IMG/VR virus record: IMGVR_UViG_3300037722_000252
Span: 1 to 58,942 of that record
DNA from: a virus
Lineage: Duplodnaviria; Caudoviricetes
Length of the DNA stretch: 58,942 nt
Strand: one strand, 5' to 3'
Position 1 is the stretch's first letter; the number at the start of each line of letters is the position of its first letter. Positions 2,688 to 52,698 of the stretch are shown here, one piece after another. A program made the position numbers and the translations under genes. The notes beneath the pieces were generated by a model that saw nothing but the letters and a program-made list of their open reading frames with translations, did no database searches and had not been told where the DNA came from.

Positions 2688-3064
2688 GCGAGTGTCACAC
2701 CCTTATTCTCGATCGCCCACCCGACCAGGGCAGCACGAAGCGCGTCGGGCGTGTCAGCGCTGGTCGAGCCGAGGTCGGGGAAAAAGTCGATCGGCTTGAA
2801 GCGTCGCTTGACGCTTGGCGTCGTGTTCGCGATCACGCTCACGATCATCCCCGTACGGAAGTTGGCCGCACGCTGTAACTCGCCCTCGCGCGCCTTGAAC
2901 TCTCGCATCTGCAGCGCCGTATCGAGAGGCGACGAGTCCCAGAACTCGACGTCCGTGACACCCGCCGCCCTCGCCCTCGCCCAGACCTCGCGCACGGTCA
3001 GCGCTTCCGCTTCGCCGCGGGCCCCTTCTTCGTGCGCTTGGGGACCGCGGCTTGCCCGTTTCCC
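2684..3064 (-). CDS. Tail assembly chaperone, -1 frameshift extension (gpGT-like)
   Basis: -1 frame is open from the slippery site into VREVWARARAAGVTDVEFWDSSP. Confidence 0.85.
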   Translation of the reverse strand, partial: GKRASRGPQAHEEGARGEAEALTVREVWARARAAGVTDVEFWDSSPLDTALQMREFKAREGELQRAANFRTGMIVSVIANTTPSVKRRFKPIDFFPDLGSTSADTPDALRAALVGWAIENKGVTLA

Positions 3065-3805: not shown

Positions 3806-4240
3806 TCAGGCCACCGCTGCCGCGGTCGCCAGGTAGGACATGCTGAAGCGGGGCCTCGAGCGCTTGTCGAAAACCCGTGCGAACTCCGAGCTGCGTGCAC
3901 GGACCTGCATGTAGGTCCCGTTACCGAGCGTCACACCGGACAGTGAGTGCAACGCCTCGTAGATCGCGGCGGCCTTAGCGCGGGCACTGTCACGATCGAA
4001 TGGCAGCCCGCGAACAGTGACGAGCACCGATGGGAACGTGAGCGCCTCAGACCCCGCCCCCTCGGCCGCGTGCACCTCGGGTGCGGGGCCGACGTCTTCG
4101 GCGATCTGCACGATCTGGTCGACCTGACCGTCTGCGCCCTCGTCGTAGAGCGCGCCACGCGTCGAAGGCCAATCGGTCGTGCCGTCGACCAGCCCTTCGG
4201 CTTCGAGGTACGCCTGCACGTCCGCGGCCAGGTCCCTCAT
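3806..4240 (-). CDS. Tail terminator-like protein
   Basis: PSVLVTVRG...RPRFSMSY pattern; synteny. Confidence 0.75.
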   Translation of the reverse strand: MRDLAADVQAYLEAEGLVDGTTDWPSTRGALYDEGADGQVDQIVQIAEDVGPAPEVHAAEGAGSEALTFPSVLVTVRGLPFDRDSARAKAAAIYEALHSLSGVTLGNGTYMQVRARSSEFARVFDKRSRPRFSMSYLATAAAVA

Positions 4241-5642: not shown

Positions 5643-6125
5643 TCACCCCTCGCTCTCCCGGGGGGCGTCCTTGACCGCTTCTTTGCGCGCGATGATCTCG
5701 CGGACCTGAGAGCCCGTGTAGCGGTCCTCGAAGCCGTACTCGACGCCCTCGAAGTCCTCGACCGTCAGGCCCGCGTCGAGCGCGGCCCTGAGCGTGGTCT
5801 CGGCCATCGGCAGTGTGCGAAGCCCGATGTCGGCACCGTTCGAGACCGCCGGCCGCTCGTCACGATGGACTCCGCGGTATTCGGTCTGGGTCAGCTCGCG
5901 GGCCTTGCCCCTGAGCGACCCGTTCTTGACCTGGTTCTCGGTCGGGTGGAAGCGCGCGCCGGGCCCGATCCGGATCCCACCGGGTAGGCCCTTGCAGCCC
6001 TCGACGACCTCGTACACGCGGTCCGACTGCTTCTCGCCCGACTTGTACTCAACCACGCCGAGCGCGCGGTTGGAGTCCATGTCCTTCGCGTGCTTGTCCT
6101 GTGCCTGCTCCAGCGTCATCGGCAT
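5643..6125 (-). CDS. Hypothetical head-region protein, possible C-terminal E3-binding-like domain
   Basis: Follows the MCP; ends ALDAGLTVEDFEG...YTGSQVREII. Confidence 0.55.
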   Translation of the reverse strand: MPMTLEQAQDKHAKDMDSNRALGVVEYKSGEKQSDRVYEVVEGCKGLPGGIRIGPGARFHPTENQVKNGSLRGKARELTQTEYRGVHRDERPAVSNGADIGLRTLPMAETTLRAALDAGLTVEDFEGVEYGFEDRYTGSQVREIIARKEAVKDAPRESEG

Positions 6126-6139
6126 CGGTTTCAGAGCCC

Positions 6140-7165
6140 TTAGCTCAGGTGAGAGATGCCGGCAGCCGTCGTCAGCGCCGGCAGGGTGCCAGCCGACAGC
6201 GGCGCACGGGCGTTGGCGGCACGGAGCGCGAACGTGAGAACGGCGAGCACTGCCCAGTTGTTCGCGAGCCCGCCCATCTCGTCCCACATGACCGTGGTGA
6301 GTTGCTGGCCGACCGCCTGCGTCACGACGCTCCTCGTCATCTGCACGAGCAGCACGTTCGAGTCCGCGAGCGCCGGCAGCACCTTGATCGACGTGATGCC
6401 GTCGATCGTGAGCAGGCGCTCACGCAGCGTGCGGTCCGACTCGGCCTTGTAGTCGTCGTCGATGACGCCGTCGAAGTTGGCCGGGATGTAGAGCGTGTAG
6501 GGGCCCGTGAACCCGTCGTTTCTCAGCGCCGAGCGCATCGCGAGCACGTCGGCCACCGCAGCGGCGAGCCCCGGAGGCGTCAGCGCGCTCCAGGCCGAGT
6601 CCGAGAACGACTGCTGGTCGCGGCTGCCGAAGTTCGTGTAGCCGGGCAGCGAGTTGCCGCCGAGCACGACCACCGAGCCGTTGCACAGCGTGTCCTCCAG
6701 CTTCTCGGCGACCGAGCGGGTGTGCTCTTCGAGGTTCGTCAGGTCGACCGGCTCGCCCATGCTCTGGCCGGCCGCACGGTGCCGCGCGTCGAGCCGGAAC
6801 TGGCTCGCCGTGACGGGCACCGGAATCGCGGTCCGGCTGAAGTTGACGAGGTCGCGGTCACCCAGGTCGAGGATCGACATGCCCTGCGTCGCCTCACCGA
6901 CCGGCGCGATACGGTCGAACTCGAACGTGGTGGCGCCGATACCCTTCGCGAGCGGCGTGGTGAGGCTTGCGAGATCGGCGACCGCGACCAGGTCGCGACG
7001 TGCGACCCGGACCAGCGCCTCCTCGATCTCGCGCGTCTCGTCCTCGCGCAGCGTGTTGTTCTCGACGAGCGCGCGGTACATCGCCTTGCGGTCGATGCGC
7101 CCGTTCCTGACGAACGCCGCGGGGATGTCCTGGCGCAGGTTCGAGCTCAGTGCGTGTGTCAGCAT
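6140..7165 (-). CDS. Major capsid protein (HK97 fold, encapsulin/linocin-like family)
   Basis: 341 aa; AEKLEDTLCNG, GYTNF, GPYTLY, DDYKAESDRTLRERL; follows the decoration gene. Confidence 0.9.
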   Translation of the reverse strand: MLTHALSSNLRQDIPAAFVRNGRIDRKAMYRALVENNTLREDETREIEEALVRVARRDLVAVADLASLTTPLAKGIGATTFEFDRIAPVGEATQGMSILDLGDRDLVNFSRTAIPVPVTASQFRLDARHRAAGQSMGEPVDLTNLEEHTRSVAEKLEDTLCNGSVVVLGGNSLPGYTNFGSRDQQSFSDSAWSALTPPGLAAAVADVLAMRSALRNDGFTGPYTLYIPANFDGVIDDDYKAESDRTLRERLLTIDGITSIKVLPALADSNVLLVQMTRSVVTQAVGQQLTTVMWDEMGGLANNWAVLAVLTFALRAANARAPLSAGTLPALTTAAGISHLS

Positions 7166-7177
7166 GGGTCAGGTCTC

Positions 7178-7600
7178 CTAGACGCCGATGGGGCAGATGA
7201 CGACCTCGACCCGGCCGACCGAGCCGGAGAGGTCGGAGGCCGCGACGGCCTGACCGATGCGGTAACCGCTTCCCCACAGGCGGACGGTTCCGTTGCCGGC
7301 GCTCTCGACCCACTCACCCCTGGCGATGGTGTCGGCAGTCACGAAGTTCACGACCGCGCCGAGCTCGGGGAAAAGGATCGTCCCCTGGTCGTTGGCCGCG
7401 ACGTTGTCGTCGATGTCGTTGCCCTGGTTCTCGTGTTGTTCCTTCAGGACCGCGACGATCGCAGCGCCACCGGCCGACTGGTGCAGCCGGTAGCCGGTCG
7501 CGGTCTGCTGCATCAGCGAGCCCGGCCGAGCGGCCGCGTTCGTGATCAGCTCGTTCTGCTCGCGAGCGGACCCGCGAAGCATGATCTCGTTGCGAGCCAT
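7178..7600 (-). CDS. Head decoration/cement protein
   Basis: 140 aa between protease and MCP; IARGEWVESAGNGTV. Confidence 0.7.
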   Translation of the reverse strand: MARNEIMLRGSAREQNELITNAAARPGSLMQQTATGYRLHQSAGGAAIVAVLKEQHENQGNDIDDNVAANDQGTILFPELGAVVNFVTADTIARGEWVESAGNGTVRLWGSGYRIGQAVAASDLSGSVGRVEVVICPIGV

Positions 7601-8838
7601 CAGTTGGCCTCCTTGCTCGTCGCGAAGATGTCCTCACGCACGAAGTCGAAGGTTCCGACCGGCTCGGTCACGCCGGCACGCGGGCCACCGAGACCTGAGT
7701 AGTTCGCGGCACGCGGGAACATCGCCTGGTGCACCTTGCGCAACTCGGCGATGCCCATCTTGCGGACCTCGGTCTCGTTCCACGGGCACGACTTGGCGTT
7801 GTAGATGACATCGTCGAGCAGCCGGACCTTCTCCTTCTCCTCCGACTCGAGCGCGTTGGCCGTCTTCGCCTGGAGGTCTTCGAGCTCGCGCCGGTACTTG
7901 TGCGCGAGCTGCAGGGCCTCTGAGTCGTTGGCCGGAGGCGCGGGCTCGCTGGCCGAGCACAGCGCCTTGAGCTGGCAGTCGCTCAGCTTGGCCAGCGCGT
8001 CCTTGTCGGTGCCCGCCCCTGCGAGTTGGGCGATCATCTGATCTCGGTTCATGCTGCTTCCCTCCTCGGGGGTATCACCGTCGGCGCCTGCCGGCGGGTC
8101 ATCGGGCGCAGGCGCGCCGTCATCGTTGGTGTCTTCGTTGCGCGCGATGCCAACCGCTTGGAGAGCCTTGTTGAAGGCTTCTCTGATGGCGGCCACCCAC
8201 TGCGCGTCCCGCTTGAAGTCGATCGGGTCTGCAGGCTTCGGAGCGTCGAGCGCCGACGAGCAGTCGCCCGCGTGATTGACCCCGAGCCCGCAGCCGTCCG
8301 TCACGCTGCACGCGCCGATCTCGTCGGGCAGGAGCGCGAGGTGGTCGGGCCGGATCTCGTGCAGCACGTAGTCGTAGGCTTCGGTGCCCCACTTGCCGGG
8401 CGCGTGCTCGATCTGCGTACCGAAGCCGGTCGAGACCTCGCCGACCTCGCCGTTCTGCACGCCGTTGACGACGGACAGCGCGTCGGCGACCTCTGCGGCG
8501 CGCTGAAGATCGATCCACACGTCGCCCTTCAGCGCGCCGTCCTCGAACCGCGCACCGAAGATGCGACCCGTGCCTCGACTGTTGAGCACTTCCGGGTCGC
8601 GGGCACTGACCGGCATGCCGCGCTTGGAGGGGTGGCGGATGACGACCGGCACACCGTTCCAGGCATCGACGGAAGCTTCGATCTCGGCGGCGGAGAGGAA
8701 CGTGCGGCCGAGGTTGTTGACGAGCACCTGCTCACGGACGAGCACAGCAGGGAACACGGCATGATCGCGGCCTTCGAGCTGCTTCGTCGTCGAAGGTCCC
8801 GCGATCTGGACTGCGATCTGGAGGAGCTTTTCGTCCAA
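7600..8838 (-). CDS. Prohead protease/scaffold (DUF2213-like)
   Basis: WNGVPVVIRHP, EVSTGF, PDHLALLPDEIGACSVTDGCG; helical C-terminus; likely TTG start at 8838 after GGAG. Confidence 0.85.
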   Translation of the reverse strand: MDEKLLQIAVQIAGPSTTKQLEGRDHAVFPAVLVREQVLVNNLGRTFLSAAEIEASVDAWNGVPVVIRHPSKRGMPVSARDPEVLNSRGTGRIFGARFEDGALKGDVWIDLQRAAEVADALSVVNGVQNGEVGEVSTGFGTQIEHAPGKWGTEAYDYVLHEIRPDHLALLPDEIGACSVTDGCGLGVNHAGDCSSALDAPKPADPIDFKRDAQWVAAIREAFNKALQAVGIARNEDTNDDGAPAPDDPPAGADGDTPEEGSSMNRDQMIAQLAGAGTDKDALAKLSDCQLKALCSASEPAPPANDSEALQLAHKYRRELEDLQAKTANALESEEKEKVRLLDDVIYNAKSCPWNETEVRKMGIAELRKVHQAMFPRAANYSGLGGPRAGVTEPVGTFDFVREDIFATSKEAN

Positions 8839-49384: not shown

Positions 49385-50022
49385 TTCAGCACCACCAGCG
49401 CGACCAGTGCGAGCGCCGCGCCGCGTTCGTACCACACCCGCCGCTCTCTCGCCCGGAGCGCGTCGTCTCGTGCGGAGCTCGCCGCCTCCGATGCCGCCAG
49501 CGCGCTCGCGGCGACCTCTGCCGTGTGACGGTGCCCCTCGGCGGTCGTACGCCAGAGCGCGGCATTCTCAGCGGTCGCCGCTAGGCTCACCCTCAGCCCG
49601 GCAGCGACGGCCCGCTCGGCGCTCACCACGTCCGCATGGTCCACGATGATGCGGTCGAGTAGCGCGACGCCGAGCGTATCATCTCGCGTACGTAGGTGGT
49701 AGCGGAGCGAGTCGGTGCGGCCAGCGAACGCGGTGTCTGCCAGCGCGCTCCGCTCTTCGGCCCGCTCGACCTCGACCGTCACCGAGTCCACGACCCGCAC
49801 GAGCACCGTATCCGAGCGCACCGCCTGAGCCTGTAGCGAGTCAGCCCGCTCGCGTGCAGAGGCCAGCGAGTCGAGCGCGACGTCTTTGATCGAGTCCGCG
49901 TACACGATGCGCGCTTCGAACGCCGAGCCCTGAGCGCAGCCCCGCCCGATCAGCACGAGACAGAGCGCGAGCAGCACGGCGGCCAGCCACGATGGCGTAG
50001 ATACTAGGCTCCGGCCGCTCAT
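49381..50022 (-). CDS. Putative unimolecular spanin
   Basis: Signal ending LIGRGC, long helical region, C-terminal TM GAALALVALVVLK; lysis context. Confidence 0.7.
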   Translation of the reverse strand: MSGRSLVSTPSWLAAVLLALCLVLIGRGCAQGSAFEARIVYADSIKDVALDSLASARERADSLQAQAVRSDTVLVRVVDSVTVEVERAEERSALADTAFAGRTDSLRYHLRTRDDTLGVALLDRIIVDHADVVSAERAVAAGLRVSLAATAENAALWRTTAEGHRHTAEVAASALAASEAASSARDDALRARERRVWYERGAALALVALVVLK

Positions 50023-50228
50023 CGGTTCGGGCACCCCCGAGCTTCGGGCCCGTTTCGGGCGCGTTTGGCCCGATTCGGCCAAAGTGGCACGCTCAGGATG
50101 CCCCAGGACGCGCGAGACGGCCGGGGGACGTGTACGGAGTAGGGCGCCGAGTGCTCGCCACCCACGGGGCCACGGTCGCGGGCCGTGTAACAATGTGCCC
50201 GCACCCCCGAAAGTCGGGCGCTTTTCGC

Positions 50229-50257
50229 TTGCGCGCACGGCCAGGGGCCGCTATCGT
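50229..50257 (+). promoter_or_regulatory. Cassette sigma70 promoter
   Basis: TTGCGC-N17-TATCGT. Confidence 0.65.
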
Positions 50258-50303
50258 ATAGGTACGGCGGATTGACCAGCCGGACCCAAGAGAGAGACCA
50301 GAC

Positions 50304-50690
50304 ATGACGATCCAGACCCCCACACTCGACAGCCTGATCGCTGGCCACGATGTATCGGACAGCCGCATGGAGACGCTCTCCATCGCGATGGAACTCGGCG
50401 CCGACGAAGTGACGCTCGCCACGTTGCGCGACGCCCTTCGCCTCAGCCGCGGCACCACGATCGTGCTCCCGGCCCACCGGTACGAGAGCCTCAGCCGTGG
50501 TCGGGGCTGGGCCAGGATGGGGCGCGGCGACAACGCCATATGGGGTGAGCGCACAGACTCCGGTGACTACCGCGTCGGCCCCGGTCGATGGTCCGTGGGC
50601 GGCTCGGACGGCTACCGGCGCAAGGACTCGACGGAGTGGACTGTGCGTCATGTGGCCGTGGGCACGCAGGCGTGGACGATCGCGGACTAA
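50304..50690 (+). CDS. Cassette gene 1, hypothetical (128 aa)
   Basis: RBS; Trp/Gly-rich beta C-terminus. Confidence 0.75.
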   Translation: MTIQTPTLDSLIAGHDVSDSRMETLSIAMELGADEVTLATLRDALRLSRGTTIVLPAHRYESLSRGRGWARMGRGDNAIWGERTDSGDYRVGPGRWSVGGSDGYRRKDSTEWTVRHVAVGTQAWTIAD

Positions 50691-50691
50691 C

Positions 50692-50765
50692 GGCGAAACG
50701 GGGCTCCGGCCCCGTCCCGGAACCGGGAGCCCGGCCCGCCCGACCGGCTGAATGAGCCAGGGCCG
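50692..50765 (+). ncRNA. Type II hammerhead ribozyme candidate with variant core CUGAAUGA
   Basis: GGC-GAAAC-GGGGC-uccg-GCCCC-GUC-CCGG...CCGG-CUGAAUGA-GCC; pseudoknot CGGCCC (50732-37) with GGGCCG (50760-65). Confidence 0.7.
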
Positions 50766-50783
50766 ACCAACGGAGACACGACC

Positions 50784-51395
50784 ATGACGACGTACACAGC
50801 GAGACTCATCGACACGGGAGCGCAGACCGCCGAGAAGCCCTGGGGCATGTATGCCGCCCGGGCTGGCCGCGAGTGGCTGGACGGAGCCTTCGGCTCGCAG
50901 GCCGAGGCCGAGGCCGAGGCCGGGCGACGACAGGCGGCGGCGGCCAAGCCCCCGACCCGCACGATCACGCTGACCGACCGCCCGCCGGTCCGCATCCGTG
51001 AGGACGAGTGGCCCATGATCGCCCAGGGTTCCGGCGACAGCTACGCCGGCAACGACTACGGCAAACACCAGCAGGCTCTGGCCCGCGGCGAGGTCGATGA
51101 GTACACGCTCCGCGCGCGTCAGCACGCCGACGGCCGCGTGATCGTCTACGCTGTGCTCGTCGGCGCGTCGGCGTGGACGGGCAGTGAGGACCGCCGGGAG
51201 GGCGAGTTGCTCGGTGTCCCGCGCCCAGGCGCGAACGACGCTGCCGGGTGGGACGCCTACCGTCAGGCGGGCGGCGAGCGCCATGTCTCGGGCGCGACCG
51301 TGGCCGCCACGATCCGCGAGGTCGGCGAGCGGTGCGGCCTGCCAGACTCCGTGATCCGCGAGTGCATCGCGGACCTGCCGGCCGAAGAGGTCTAG
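50784..51395 (+). CDS. Cassette gene 2, hypothetical (203 aa)
   Basis: GGAG RBS; RTITLTDRPPVRIREDEWP...RQHADGRVIVY...ECIADLPAEEV. Confidence 0.8.
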   Translation: MTTYTARLIDTGAQTAEKPWGMYAARAGREWLDGAFGSQAEAEAEAGRRQAAAAKPPTRTITLTDRPPVRIREDEWPMIAQGSGDSYAGNDYGKHQQALARGEVDEYTLRARQHADGRVIVYAVLVGASAWTGSEDRREGELLGVPRPGANDAAGWDAYRQAGGERHVSGATVAATIREVGERCGLPDSVIRECIADLPAEEV

Positions 51396-51399
51396 GCCA

Positions 51400-51458
51400 G
51401 GTGAGGGACGGGGGCCGCGCGGCCCCCGGTAAACCGCACGGCCGGTCCCAAGCCCGGC
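51400..51458 (+). ncRNA. Circularly permuted (P5-type) twister ribozyme
   Basis: GGU-GAGGG-[8-bp P1 hairpin]-UAA-ACC-GC-ACG-GCCGG-UCCCAAGC-CCGGC; conserved twister elements and both pseudoknots are present. Confidence 0.85.
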
Positions 51459-51478
51459 CACCACCACAGGGATATCGG

Positions 51479-51721
51479 ATGACGACGACCGCCGGCTACA
51501 TGGCGCGCGCGCTGGCTCGGGGCGAGTCACTCCCCGAGCCAGTAGCGCTGCGTCCCGAGGACATCCGCGAGTGGCGCATCGCCGAGAGCCTGACGCAAGT
51601 CCAGGCCGCGAAGATCGCAGGCGTCGGCGCGCGCGCATGGCAGCGCTGGGAGGGCGGCGAGCGCCCGATACCCGAATCGCTGCGAGACGTGCTCGCGCAC
51701 CGCTGGGGGTCCGCTCCGTAG
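51479..51721 (+). CDS. Cassette gene 3, XRE-family HTH protein
   Basis: IREWRIAESLTQVQAAKIAGVGARAWQRWEGGERPIP. Confidence 0.88.
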   Translation: MTTTAGYMARALARGESLPEPVALRPEDIREWRIAESLTQVQAAKIAGVGARAWQRWEGGERPIPESLRDVLAHRWGSAP

Positions 51722-51755
51722 GCGCGAGCAGCACGGCGACGGCGAGGCGGTCCAT
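51722..51755 (-). pseudogene. Displaced original 5' end of the spanin gene (MDRLAVAVLLA)
   Basis: ATG coupled to the upstream stop (TAATG); in frame with the spanin through the 17-bp repeat. Confidence 0.7.
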
Positions 51756-52183
51756 TACCCGTGCACGTCCGGTCGGAGCCAGTGCTGGTGCAGCATCCAG
51801 TGGAGCATGACCGCGGTCATTCCGCCGAGCAGCCATCCCTCCCAGCTCGGCACGTAGGCCGCAACGGTACGAGCCAGCAGGAACGCGATTGGGAGCGCGA
51901 CGATGTCGACGAGCCAATTCCAGCCGGTGCCCGGACGATCGTGCTTCGACAGATGCTTGACGACCCACGTCACGACCGCGGAGAGCGTCCAGCGCCAGTT
52001 CAGCCGGAGCGCGACGAACTCGCAGGGGAAGAACGCGAGCAGCGTCACGAGCGCGAAGCGTGGCCCGTGCGACTCACCGAGCCAGATGTGCGCGAGCCAC
52101 ACGTCGGCGTACCAGATCGTCCAGAGCCAGCCGAACACGAGGTGCGGAGCGTGCTTCGGCACGTAGCGCTCGGCGGTCGTCAT
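51755..52183 (-). CDS. Multi-TM membrane protein (holin candidate)
   Basis: About 4 hydrophobic segments; follows the endolysin. Confidence 0.6.
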   Translation of the reverse strand: MTTAERYVPKHAPHLVFGWLWTIWYADVWLAHIWLGESHGPRFALVTLLAFFPCEFVALRLNWRWTLSAVVTWVVKHLSKHDRPGTGWNWLVDIVALPIAFLLARTVAAYVPSWEGWLLGGMTAVMLHWMLHQHWLRPDVHG

Positions 52184-52698
52184 CCCACCTCCCCATCCCA
52201 ACAGGGATCGATGAATGTGACCCGGTAGCCGCTGTCGAGCTGCCGCGTCCGGACCGCGACCGCGTCGCCGTCGCGCTCGTTCTCGGCCGCCGTGTTGCCC
52301 TCGACGCTCGTGAACAGCGGTGAGCCGACCTTCGGGGGCCGCACCACCATGCCGATGTGGTCCCAGCGAGCGCCGCCGAAGCTGAAAAGCACAAGGAAGC
52401 CCGGACGGACGAGTTCGATCGGCACCTGTTGGGCCTGCAGCAGATCCCAGTAGTCCTGGACGTAGGCCTCGCGACGGACCGCGTCGAGCGGGTTGGCGAC
52501 TCCGAGCTGGTGGGCTGCGGTGTCGAACCCGCTTTGCACCTCCGCCGCGCACCACGGAGCGCCCTCGGGTAGCGGCGGGTCGAGATCGGCGAGCAGCATC
52601 CGGACGAACGTGCCGCGGTTGTTGCCGCCCTCCTCGCCCATGCCGAGCTTCGCGTCGCGGAGCATGCAGCCGAGGGCGGTCAACTCAAGGCCCCTCAC
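52180..52698 (-). CDS. Endolysin, CHAP-family amidase
   Basis: E.GGNNRG, PWCAA, HIGMV, VEGNT. Confidence 0.9.
   Translation of the reverse strand: MRGLELTALGCMLRDAKLGMGEEGGNNRGTFVRMLLADLDPPLPEGAPWCAAEVQSGFDTAAHQLGVANPLDAVRREAYVQDYWDLLQAQQVPIELVRPGFLVLFSFGGARWDHIGMVVRPPKVGSPLFTSVEGNTAAENERDGDAVAVRTRQLDSGYRVTFIDPCWDGEVG

Follow-up and report, generated by a model that had tools for sequence, protein, structure and literature searches.

Type II hammerhead ribozymes are the closest described relatives of the element reported here. In Perreault et al. 2011 (PMC3088659), they are described as carrying a Watson-Crick pseudoknot between loop I and the 3′ tail and as having a stem II that is commonly as short as two base pairs; hammerheads that flank single genes in prophages are also described there. 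The same paper reports a natural insertion after core position A6, named A6a. The one case tested, which was chosen for testing because it was found in a typical gene context, had low activity in vitro, and this was ascribed there to a disturbed contact of the A6-N7 phosphate with U4 (PMC3088659). Phage PaP3 is one of the four named sources; no convincing hammerhead was detected in PaP3, in which a descriptor allowing one edit gave only an implausible match in a coding region. In searches of the literature outside subscription journals, no publication was found that paired a hammerhead with the eight-letter core CUGAAUGA, and no published statement was found that A6a recurs; the core motif alone retrieved primers and siRNAs only.

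The element at positions 50692-50765 (+) of a 58,942-bp viral record with 67% G+C, the whole of which was analysed and is referred to below as the window, is a new member of this already described A6a variant. Direct reading of the sequence revealed a complete type II hammerhead layout, with every element in type II order and one extra base in the core. A mechanical descriptor applied to the 58,942-bp window returned 50692-50765 as the single site, and the same descriptor found no canonical hammerhead in the window. Like the type II hammerheads of Rfam family RF02276, the element has capped stems I and III and a short, open stem II. It also shares with type II hammerheads the series of motifs GGCGAAAC ... 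GUC ... GAGCC, the pseudoknot between loop I and the tail, and an intergenic position in a phage beside another ribozyme. It differs from the RF02276 type II hammerheads in its core of 8 rather than 7 nt, in its longer loop I (23 nt), and in its score with the family model. As in the published A6a case, one extra nucleotide is located between A6 and G8.

Stem II is formed by a 5′ strand GGC (50692..50694, +) and a 3′ strand GCC (50756..50758, +), and its closing pair G10.1-C11.1 is present as G50756 (position 10.1) with C50694 (position 11.1). The helix has 3 bp and is not extendable, because C50691 faces A50759. The core GAAA (50695..50698, +), comprising G12, A13, A14, and A15.1, aligns to the GAAA of both the Rfam Hammerhead_II model and the covariance model R1 described below. 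The stem III hairpin (50698..50715, +) has strands at 50698-50704 and 50709-50715, which form 7 bp including A15.1-U16.1 (A50698 paired with U50715), and is closed by the loop UCCG; its constrained fold energy was -14.7 kcal/mol. The cleavage triplet GUC consists of G50714, U50715, and C50716, and position 17 is thus not a G. In the hammerhead consensus the cut falls 3′ of C17. With this consensus and the arrowheads in the figures of PMC3088659 as guides, cleavage is predicted 3′ of C17 (C50716), at 50716..50717 (+).

The stem I hairpin (50717..50747, +) consists of CCGG at 50717-50720 paired with CCGG at 50744-50747 around a loop of 23 nt (50721-50743), with a constrained fold energy of -11.4 kcal/mol. 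Three pairs are possible in addition to these 4 bp, between GGG at 50725-50727 and CCC at 50739-50741. Within loop I, the strand CGGCCC (50732..50737, +) is complementary to the 3′-tail strand GGGCCG (50760..50765, +), which begins one A after stem II. The resulting pseudoknot has 6 bp, where a type II hammerhead has at least 4 bp between loop I and the tail that follows stem II, and the layout of spacer and tail is the same in the window copy as in related copies. The core strand, read from the sequence as CUGAAUGA (50748..50755, +), is C3, U4, G5, A6, an extra A, U7, G8, and A9. It therefore holds all seven letters of the consensus C3-U4-G5-A6-N7-G8-A9 in order, with one extra A after A6, and has 8 nt rather than the exact consensus length of 7 nt. 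The extra A is either 50751 or 50752, as the sequence fits either. A different register for the core strand was rejected; no shift puts C3...G8-A9 beside stem II. A role of the region as an intrinsic terminator was also rejected, because no U tract follows. The first-pass annotation had described stems I to III, the GAAA and GUC motifs, a 6-bp pseudoknot, a 3-bp stem II, and an 8-nt core, and sequence reading and the descriptor agreed with it in every detail.

That annotation had also raised an indel error at 50751-50752, such that the true core would be the consensus CTGATGA. The core is covered by one sequencing run, X1, and contigs from three further runs (X2, X3, and X4) do not reach it (50723-50769); none of the runs listed for this DNA is an RNA run. 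Because X1 may be the source sample and the other three runs miss the core, agreement with X1 serves as a check on re-assembly only. Nevertheless, the contig of a second assembler (Logan, run X1, depth 13) covers 50300-51636 with 0 differences and 0 gaps, the AA dinucleotide is not an error-prone homopolymer, and the same extra A is present in dozens of independent assemblies from other samples. A sequencing or assembly error is thus an extremely improbable source of the insertion.

Strict pattern searches had been expected to miss the element, rightly, and Rfam at its gathering score misses it as well. Rfam searches of the whole window and of 1.5 kb yielded no hammerhead match. When 111 nt were searched with Hammerhead_II (RF02276), the score was 14.4 bits, below the gathering score of 37 (E = 1), and the 3′ half of the window copy was misaligned. 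In a control, 31 Hammerhead_II matches at the gathering score were obtained in six consensus loci, with scores of 37-59 bits. The gathering score was reached by none of 11 A6a loci from IMG/VR and by 2 of 9 A6a copies in contigs L419, L282, L412, and L446, for a total of 2 among the 20 A6a copies scanned. Annotation based on strict patterns or on the Rfam gathering score therefore under-counts A6a ribozymes. In the printed consensus-structure line of RF02276, the stem II brackets stand over 'gG' and 'Gc' and not over the paired G-C/C-G register, so that on the 5′ side the stem II brackets appear to be one column out of place.

The minimum-energy fold of the region was not the hammerhead fold, and the region was no more stable than shuffled sequences (z = -0.61). 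This folding result was not treated as conclusive, since neither pseudoknots nor tertiary contacts enter into nearest-neighbour models.

It was also considered that the element might be a chance resemblance, in which G+C-rich intergenic hairpins happen to lie beside near-consensus motifs. None of 200 dinucleotide shuffles matched any of six exact descriptors. As the first-pass annotation had allowed an edit in the core, a fair null must be looser, and when any single core edit, three topologies, and minimal stems were accepted, 54 of 300 shuffled windows had at least one match. The bare motif is thus not rare on its own. In 1000 shuffles there were 56 type II chance matches, 16 of which had a pseudoknot of at least 6 bp, so that in DNA with 67% G+C the pseudoknot alone is weak evidence and adds little. 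Fifteen of the 56 chance matches reached the number of stem pairs of the real site (at least 14), and 7 of those 15 also had a pseudoknot of at least 6 bp; matches as good as the real site therefore occur in about 7 of 1000 shuffles. From these shuffle counts, the hammerhead motif by itself is worth roughly p = 0.01-0.03, and context and comparative data therefore bear the remaining argument. The element fits exactly into an intercistronic gap, on the coding strand and beside a high-scoring twister ribozyme; it is the sole significant match to model R1 in 59 kb; and it conforms to a recurrent family even in such details as the spacer A and the pseudoknot with the tail. Chance resemblance is accordingly highly unlikely.

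The gap occupied by the hammerhead has 93 nt and separates two genes on the same strand, designated genes A and B. The hammerhead starts 1 nt past the gene A stop codon, and its end precedes the gene B ATG by 25 nt. Gene A (P0001; 50304..50690, +; 128 aa, with the stop codon TAA at 50688-50690) was recognized from its open reading frame, translation, and GC content by codon position, which at 0.64/0.57/0.85 is typical of real genes in this DNA. Gene B (P0002; 50784..51395, +; 203 aa) was recognized from its open reading frame and codon-position GC (0.74/0.56/0.89), and a Shine-Dalgarno-like GGAG (50772..50775, +) is present 8 nt before its ATG. Gene C (51479..51721, +; 80 aa, GC3 0.85) encodes a small helix-turn-helix protein, with a match to Pfam HTH_31 (E 7.3e-06, 26.6 bits) just below the cut-off of 27 and weak PHROG matches to regulators. 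Apart from the helix-turn-helix in gene C, Pfam and PHROG searches with genes A and B and eight neighbouring open reading frames gave no match. No relatives of gene A were found in viral contigs, and a BLAST search with 50250-51650 found no match in the phage collection. Judged by codon-position G+C, genes A, B, and C are a short run of plus-strand genes that interrupts long blocks of genes on the minus strand, which end at 50238 and resume at 52180; this arrangement suggests a divergently transcribed regulatory cassette. Within 49900-52400, no promoter-like (sigma-70-like) site was found, and a terminator scan of the same interval returned one minus-strand terminator-like site, at chance level.

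A Twister-P5 ribozyme (RF02684; 51400..51457, +) begins 5 nt past the stop codon of gene B and about 640 nt downstream of the hammerhead. It was matched over model positions 1-58 of 58 with 55.8 bits, compared to a gathering score of 37.6 (E 6.3e-09), and is the sole gathering-level Rfam match in the whole window. The first-pass annotation did not include this twister. According to PMC5408937, twister ribozymes have a U-A dinucleotide at the cleavage site, and on this basis and that of the aligned UAA linker the twister cut is placed at the U-A step 51430|51431. Because the hammerhead lies upstream and the twister downstream on one strand, gene B is bracketed by two self-cleaving ribozymes and constitutes a ribozyme-flanked cassette in a phage. 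This resembles the multi-ribozyme prophage arrangements described in PMC3088659 and De la Pena 2017 (PMC6155905), in which a small gene is bracketed by two ribozymes in one transcript. Unlike the arrangements described there, the pair in the window is mixed, a hammerhead with a twister-P5, and the hammerhead is a core-insertion variant.

Relatives of gene B are present in 6 viral contigs. The closest, 60% identical, is in viral contig L002, which has a consensus type I hammerhead at the same place upstream. This hammerhead (L002:1401-1453, +), positioned between an upstream stop codon and the start of the gene B relative, was detected only in a local search of 101 nt, as a Hammerhead_1 match of 24.7 bits (E 2e-4; gathering score 34). 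Inspection by eye and with a regular expression found no hammerhead upstream of the gene B relatives in the other five contigs. The two homologous genes, each from a different phage, thus follow hammerheads that differ in topology, type II in the window and type I in L002. Gene B has an N-terminal extension of ~55 residues (50784-50950) that is absent in the relatives. This extension includes an AEAEAEA run, for which three GCCGAG units repeated in tandem (about 50900-50921) code, and gene B could in truth begin at a start codon further downstream.

The first-pass annotation had proposed a search for other hammerheads with the same core, and this search identified 41 other distinct hammerheads with the core CUGA-A-Y-GA in phage, metagenome, and bacterial contigs. 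IMG/VR was scanned with the frame GGCGAAAC ... GTC ... core ... GCC, in which the stem II sequence was fixed and is hence invariant by design in the copies recovered. Every match was passed through a fold filter in which both capped helices had to reach -5 kcal/mol or lower when forced closed. The extra-A pattern CTGAANGAGCC (CTGAAN) had 15 matches in IMG/VR, 11 of which folded, 9 with AU and 2 with AC. A control pattern in which C, G, or U replaced the extra A had 25 matches, with 1 doubtful pass. The consensus core had at least 172 matches, at least 159 of which passed the fold filter (at least 120 loci); among the 149 distinct sequences listed, position 7 was occupied by U (98), C (39), A (9), or G (3). 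Because the control was nearly empty and the base after the insertion was U or C, the insertion that defines the variant is specifically an A placed after A6, with the usual U or C next to it. The window core, CUGA-A-U-GA in an otherwise consensus type II frame, belongs to this A6a subclass. Among IMG/VR copies with the stem II of the window, A6a accounts for at most 11 of 296 (about 4%), which is an upper bound.

Metagenome contigs contained 54 matches to the extra-A core, of which 37 passed the filter; these represented 28 distinct sequences, 24 of them previously unseen. In bacterial genomes there were at least 120 matches, about 100 of which would be expected by chance by our own estimate. 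Among the bacterial matches listed, 4 passed and 3 were convincing cases, from Kroppenstedtia guangzhouensis, an Anaerolineaceae MAG, and a Kitasatospora species. In 12 of 15 A6a copies examined for context, an open frame of at least 50 codons ends within 24 nt upstream. A lineage-specific pattern with a core gap of 1 or 2 nt recovered 0 close relatives of the window copy from metagenome contigs. Comparison of these sequences indicates that the extra adenine is a natural variant which, although rare, is found repeatedly across many other phages. The suggestion that the core is a natural variant was thus supported; a claim that the variant is new would be overstated, since this kind of insertion has been in print since 2011 as A6a (PMC3088659). 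Unlike that report, in which a single case was tested, the present set is a recurrent class of 42 distinct copies.

Another insertion in the same core strand, between A9 and stem II (CUGAYGA + U/A/C + GCC), was abundant in the same type II subfamily in IMG/VR, including L291-L406. At least 126 of at least 145 matches to this form folded, and among those listed the extra base was U (104), A (20), or C (2). Because this form is abundant, an 8-nt core strand appears about as common as the 7-nt consensus in the subfamily. De la Pena and Flores reportedly described, in 2001, a viroid hammerhead with an extra nucleotide between A9 and G10.1. Like the after-A9 form, A6a results from a one-base insertion that extends the same 7-nt core strand to 8 nt. 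However, the after-A9 insertion is beside stem II, whereas the A6a insertion is on the other side of G8-A9, inside the uridine-turn pocket. The two forms co-occur in contigs L018 and L282. In the viral contig L018, two hammerheads (2931-3000 and 3854-3922, +) about 850 nt apart both have 8-nt cores; one carries the extra base after A6, and in the other it follows A9.

The 11 copies from IMG/VR, but not the window copy, were used to build a covariance model, designated R1. In a search of the whole window with its filters off, R1 matched 50690-50768 over its full length (1-70) with 31.6 bits (E 1.4e-6). The next-best site in the window scored 12.4 bits, 19 bits lower. The R1 score is high partly by construction, because the training copies had been gathered with motifs from the window site. 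The window copy was among the lowest-scoring A6a rows under R1, and its 23-nt loop I is unusually long.

Application of R1 to 37 sources gave 51 hammerheads, consisting of 42 A6a copies (including the window copy), 3 consensus copies, 2 copies of the after-A9 form, and 4 of other forms. In the 51-row alignment, which was fitted to the model and so favours the structure somewhat, 93.3% of cells pair, compared to 66.3% in shuffles, and none of 500 shuffles reached the observed value; when the partners were slid, the paired fraction was 29-44%. Of the 17 pairs in this alignment, 13 change on both sides. In the relatives, stem I covaries at 8 of 8 pairs, and both-sided changes are found at 4 of 6 pairs in stem III. 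Copies L010, L021, and L023, which are of one lineage, differ in stem III and in the pseudoknot by compensatory changes and have kept the extra A.

A6a copies also occur in arrays. In metagenome contig L419 (1707-10783, +), one intercistronic gap after another over a stretch of 9 kb contains a type II hammerhead; of the nine in total, at least six are A6a. Open frames end a few nucleotides ahead of each ribozyme, and the next frame starts directly after it. Other copies in L419 have CUGAAUGA together with a GGC stem strand, CCGAAUGA, or CUGAAGAU. In L282, from Kitasatospora sp., four hammerheads are found within 2 kb (5814-7761, +): a single A6a copy, a copy in which an extra U follows A9, and two with the consensus core. 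Their layout is intercistronic, as in the window and L419, and L282 has the appearance of an array of prophage ribozymes in an actinomycete of high G+C content. A tRNA gene (2257-2329, -) is located about 3.5 kb from the hammerheads in L282.

These comparisons bear on whether the element is an inactive relic, that is, a formerly functional type II hammerhead that was disabled by the one-base insertion and either persists only as intergenic hairpins or lost its function too recently for further decay. The first-pass annotation had offered a natural active variant, an attenuated ribozyme, and a decaying copy as possible readings. The low activity published for A6a, for which PMC3088659 gives a structural reason, would be expected of such a relic, the window copy falls below the Rfam threshold, and no close relative of it was found with which lineage-specific conservation could be tested. 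However, the 41 other distinct hammerheads that share the insertion have kept three helices and the pseudoknot through compensatory changes, and the insertion persists in the diverged copies L010, L021, and L023, whose stem III and pseudoknot sequences differ. A6a is the majority form in the nine-ribozyme array in L419. Furthermore, the inserted base is an A and the next base is a U or C, as at the normal position 7, and random decay would not be so selective. Recurrence, covariation, and the arrays, as far as sequence comparison can tell, do not readily fit either decay or an error of assembly, and an inactive relic is considered unlikely.

The analysis established the anatomy of the element, its intergenic position, the presence of a twister nearby, and that the variant recurs and covaries, and these results together point to a genuine type II hammerhead at 50692-50765 (+). 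Very probably, the element is a rare natural A6a core variant that is predicted to cleave itself and, with the twister, to free the gene B RNA. A plus-strand phage transcript of three genes, starting near 50304, would carry the hammerhead, which would fold co-transcriptionally, with the 6-bp pseudoknot holding stems I and II parallel. Self-cleavage is predicted between C50716 and C50717. Self-cleaving ribozymes leave 2′,3′-cyclic phosphate and 5′-OH ends, as described in PMC8782182. The gene A message would then end in the stem III hairpin with a 2′,3′-cyclic phosphate, and the downstream message would begin with a 5′-OH and the stem I hairpin, 55 nt ahead of the ribosome-binding site of gene B. 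The hammerhead cut and the cut predicted for the twister at 51430|51431 would between them yield a gene B RNA of about 714 nt (50717-51430), and the gene C message would start after the twister.

The rate of cleavage is probably below that of the consensus core. If the extra A slows cleavage, cut and uncut forms of the transcript may coexist. The new ends might alter decay by RNases that depend on the 5′ end and so affect mRNA stability, and the cuts may uncouple the expression of genes A, B, and C, with an effect on their relative expression.

The window ribozyme is ordinary in kind, has a textbook phage context, and is of modest interest because a supposedly harmful insertion is conserved and arrayed. 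A tentative proposal, which we regard as possible but rather doubtful, is that A6a hammerheads are a selected, functionally distinct subclass that serves as a working intercistronic ribozyme in phages of several bacterial phyla. Either the active site would accommodate an extra base in a manner unforeseen by crystal structures, or slow, partial cleavage would itself be selected. Conservation of A6a in dozens of covarying copies and in arrays, despite the structural reasoning and the one in vitro test, makes the variant a natural test case for how much weight an in vitro rate should be given in vivo and for the selection of attenuated ribozymes. If the proposal is true, partial cleavage by A6a hammerheads would determine how the mRNA is divided between polycistronic and monocistronic forms.
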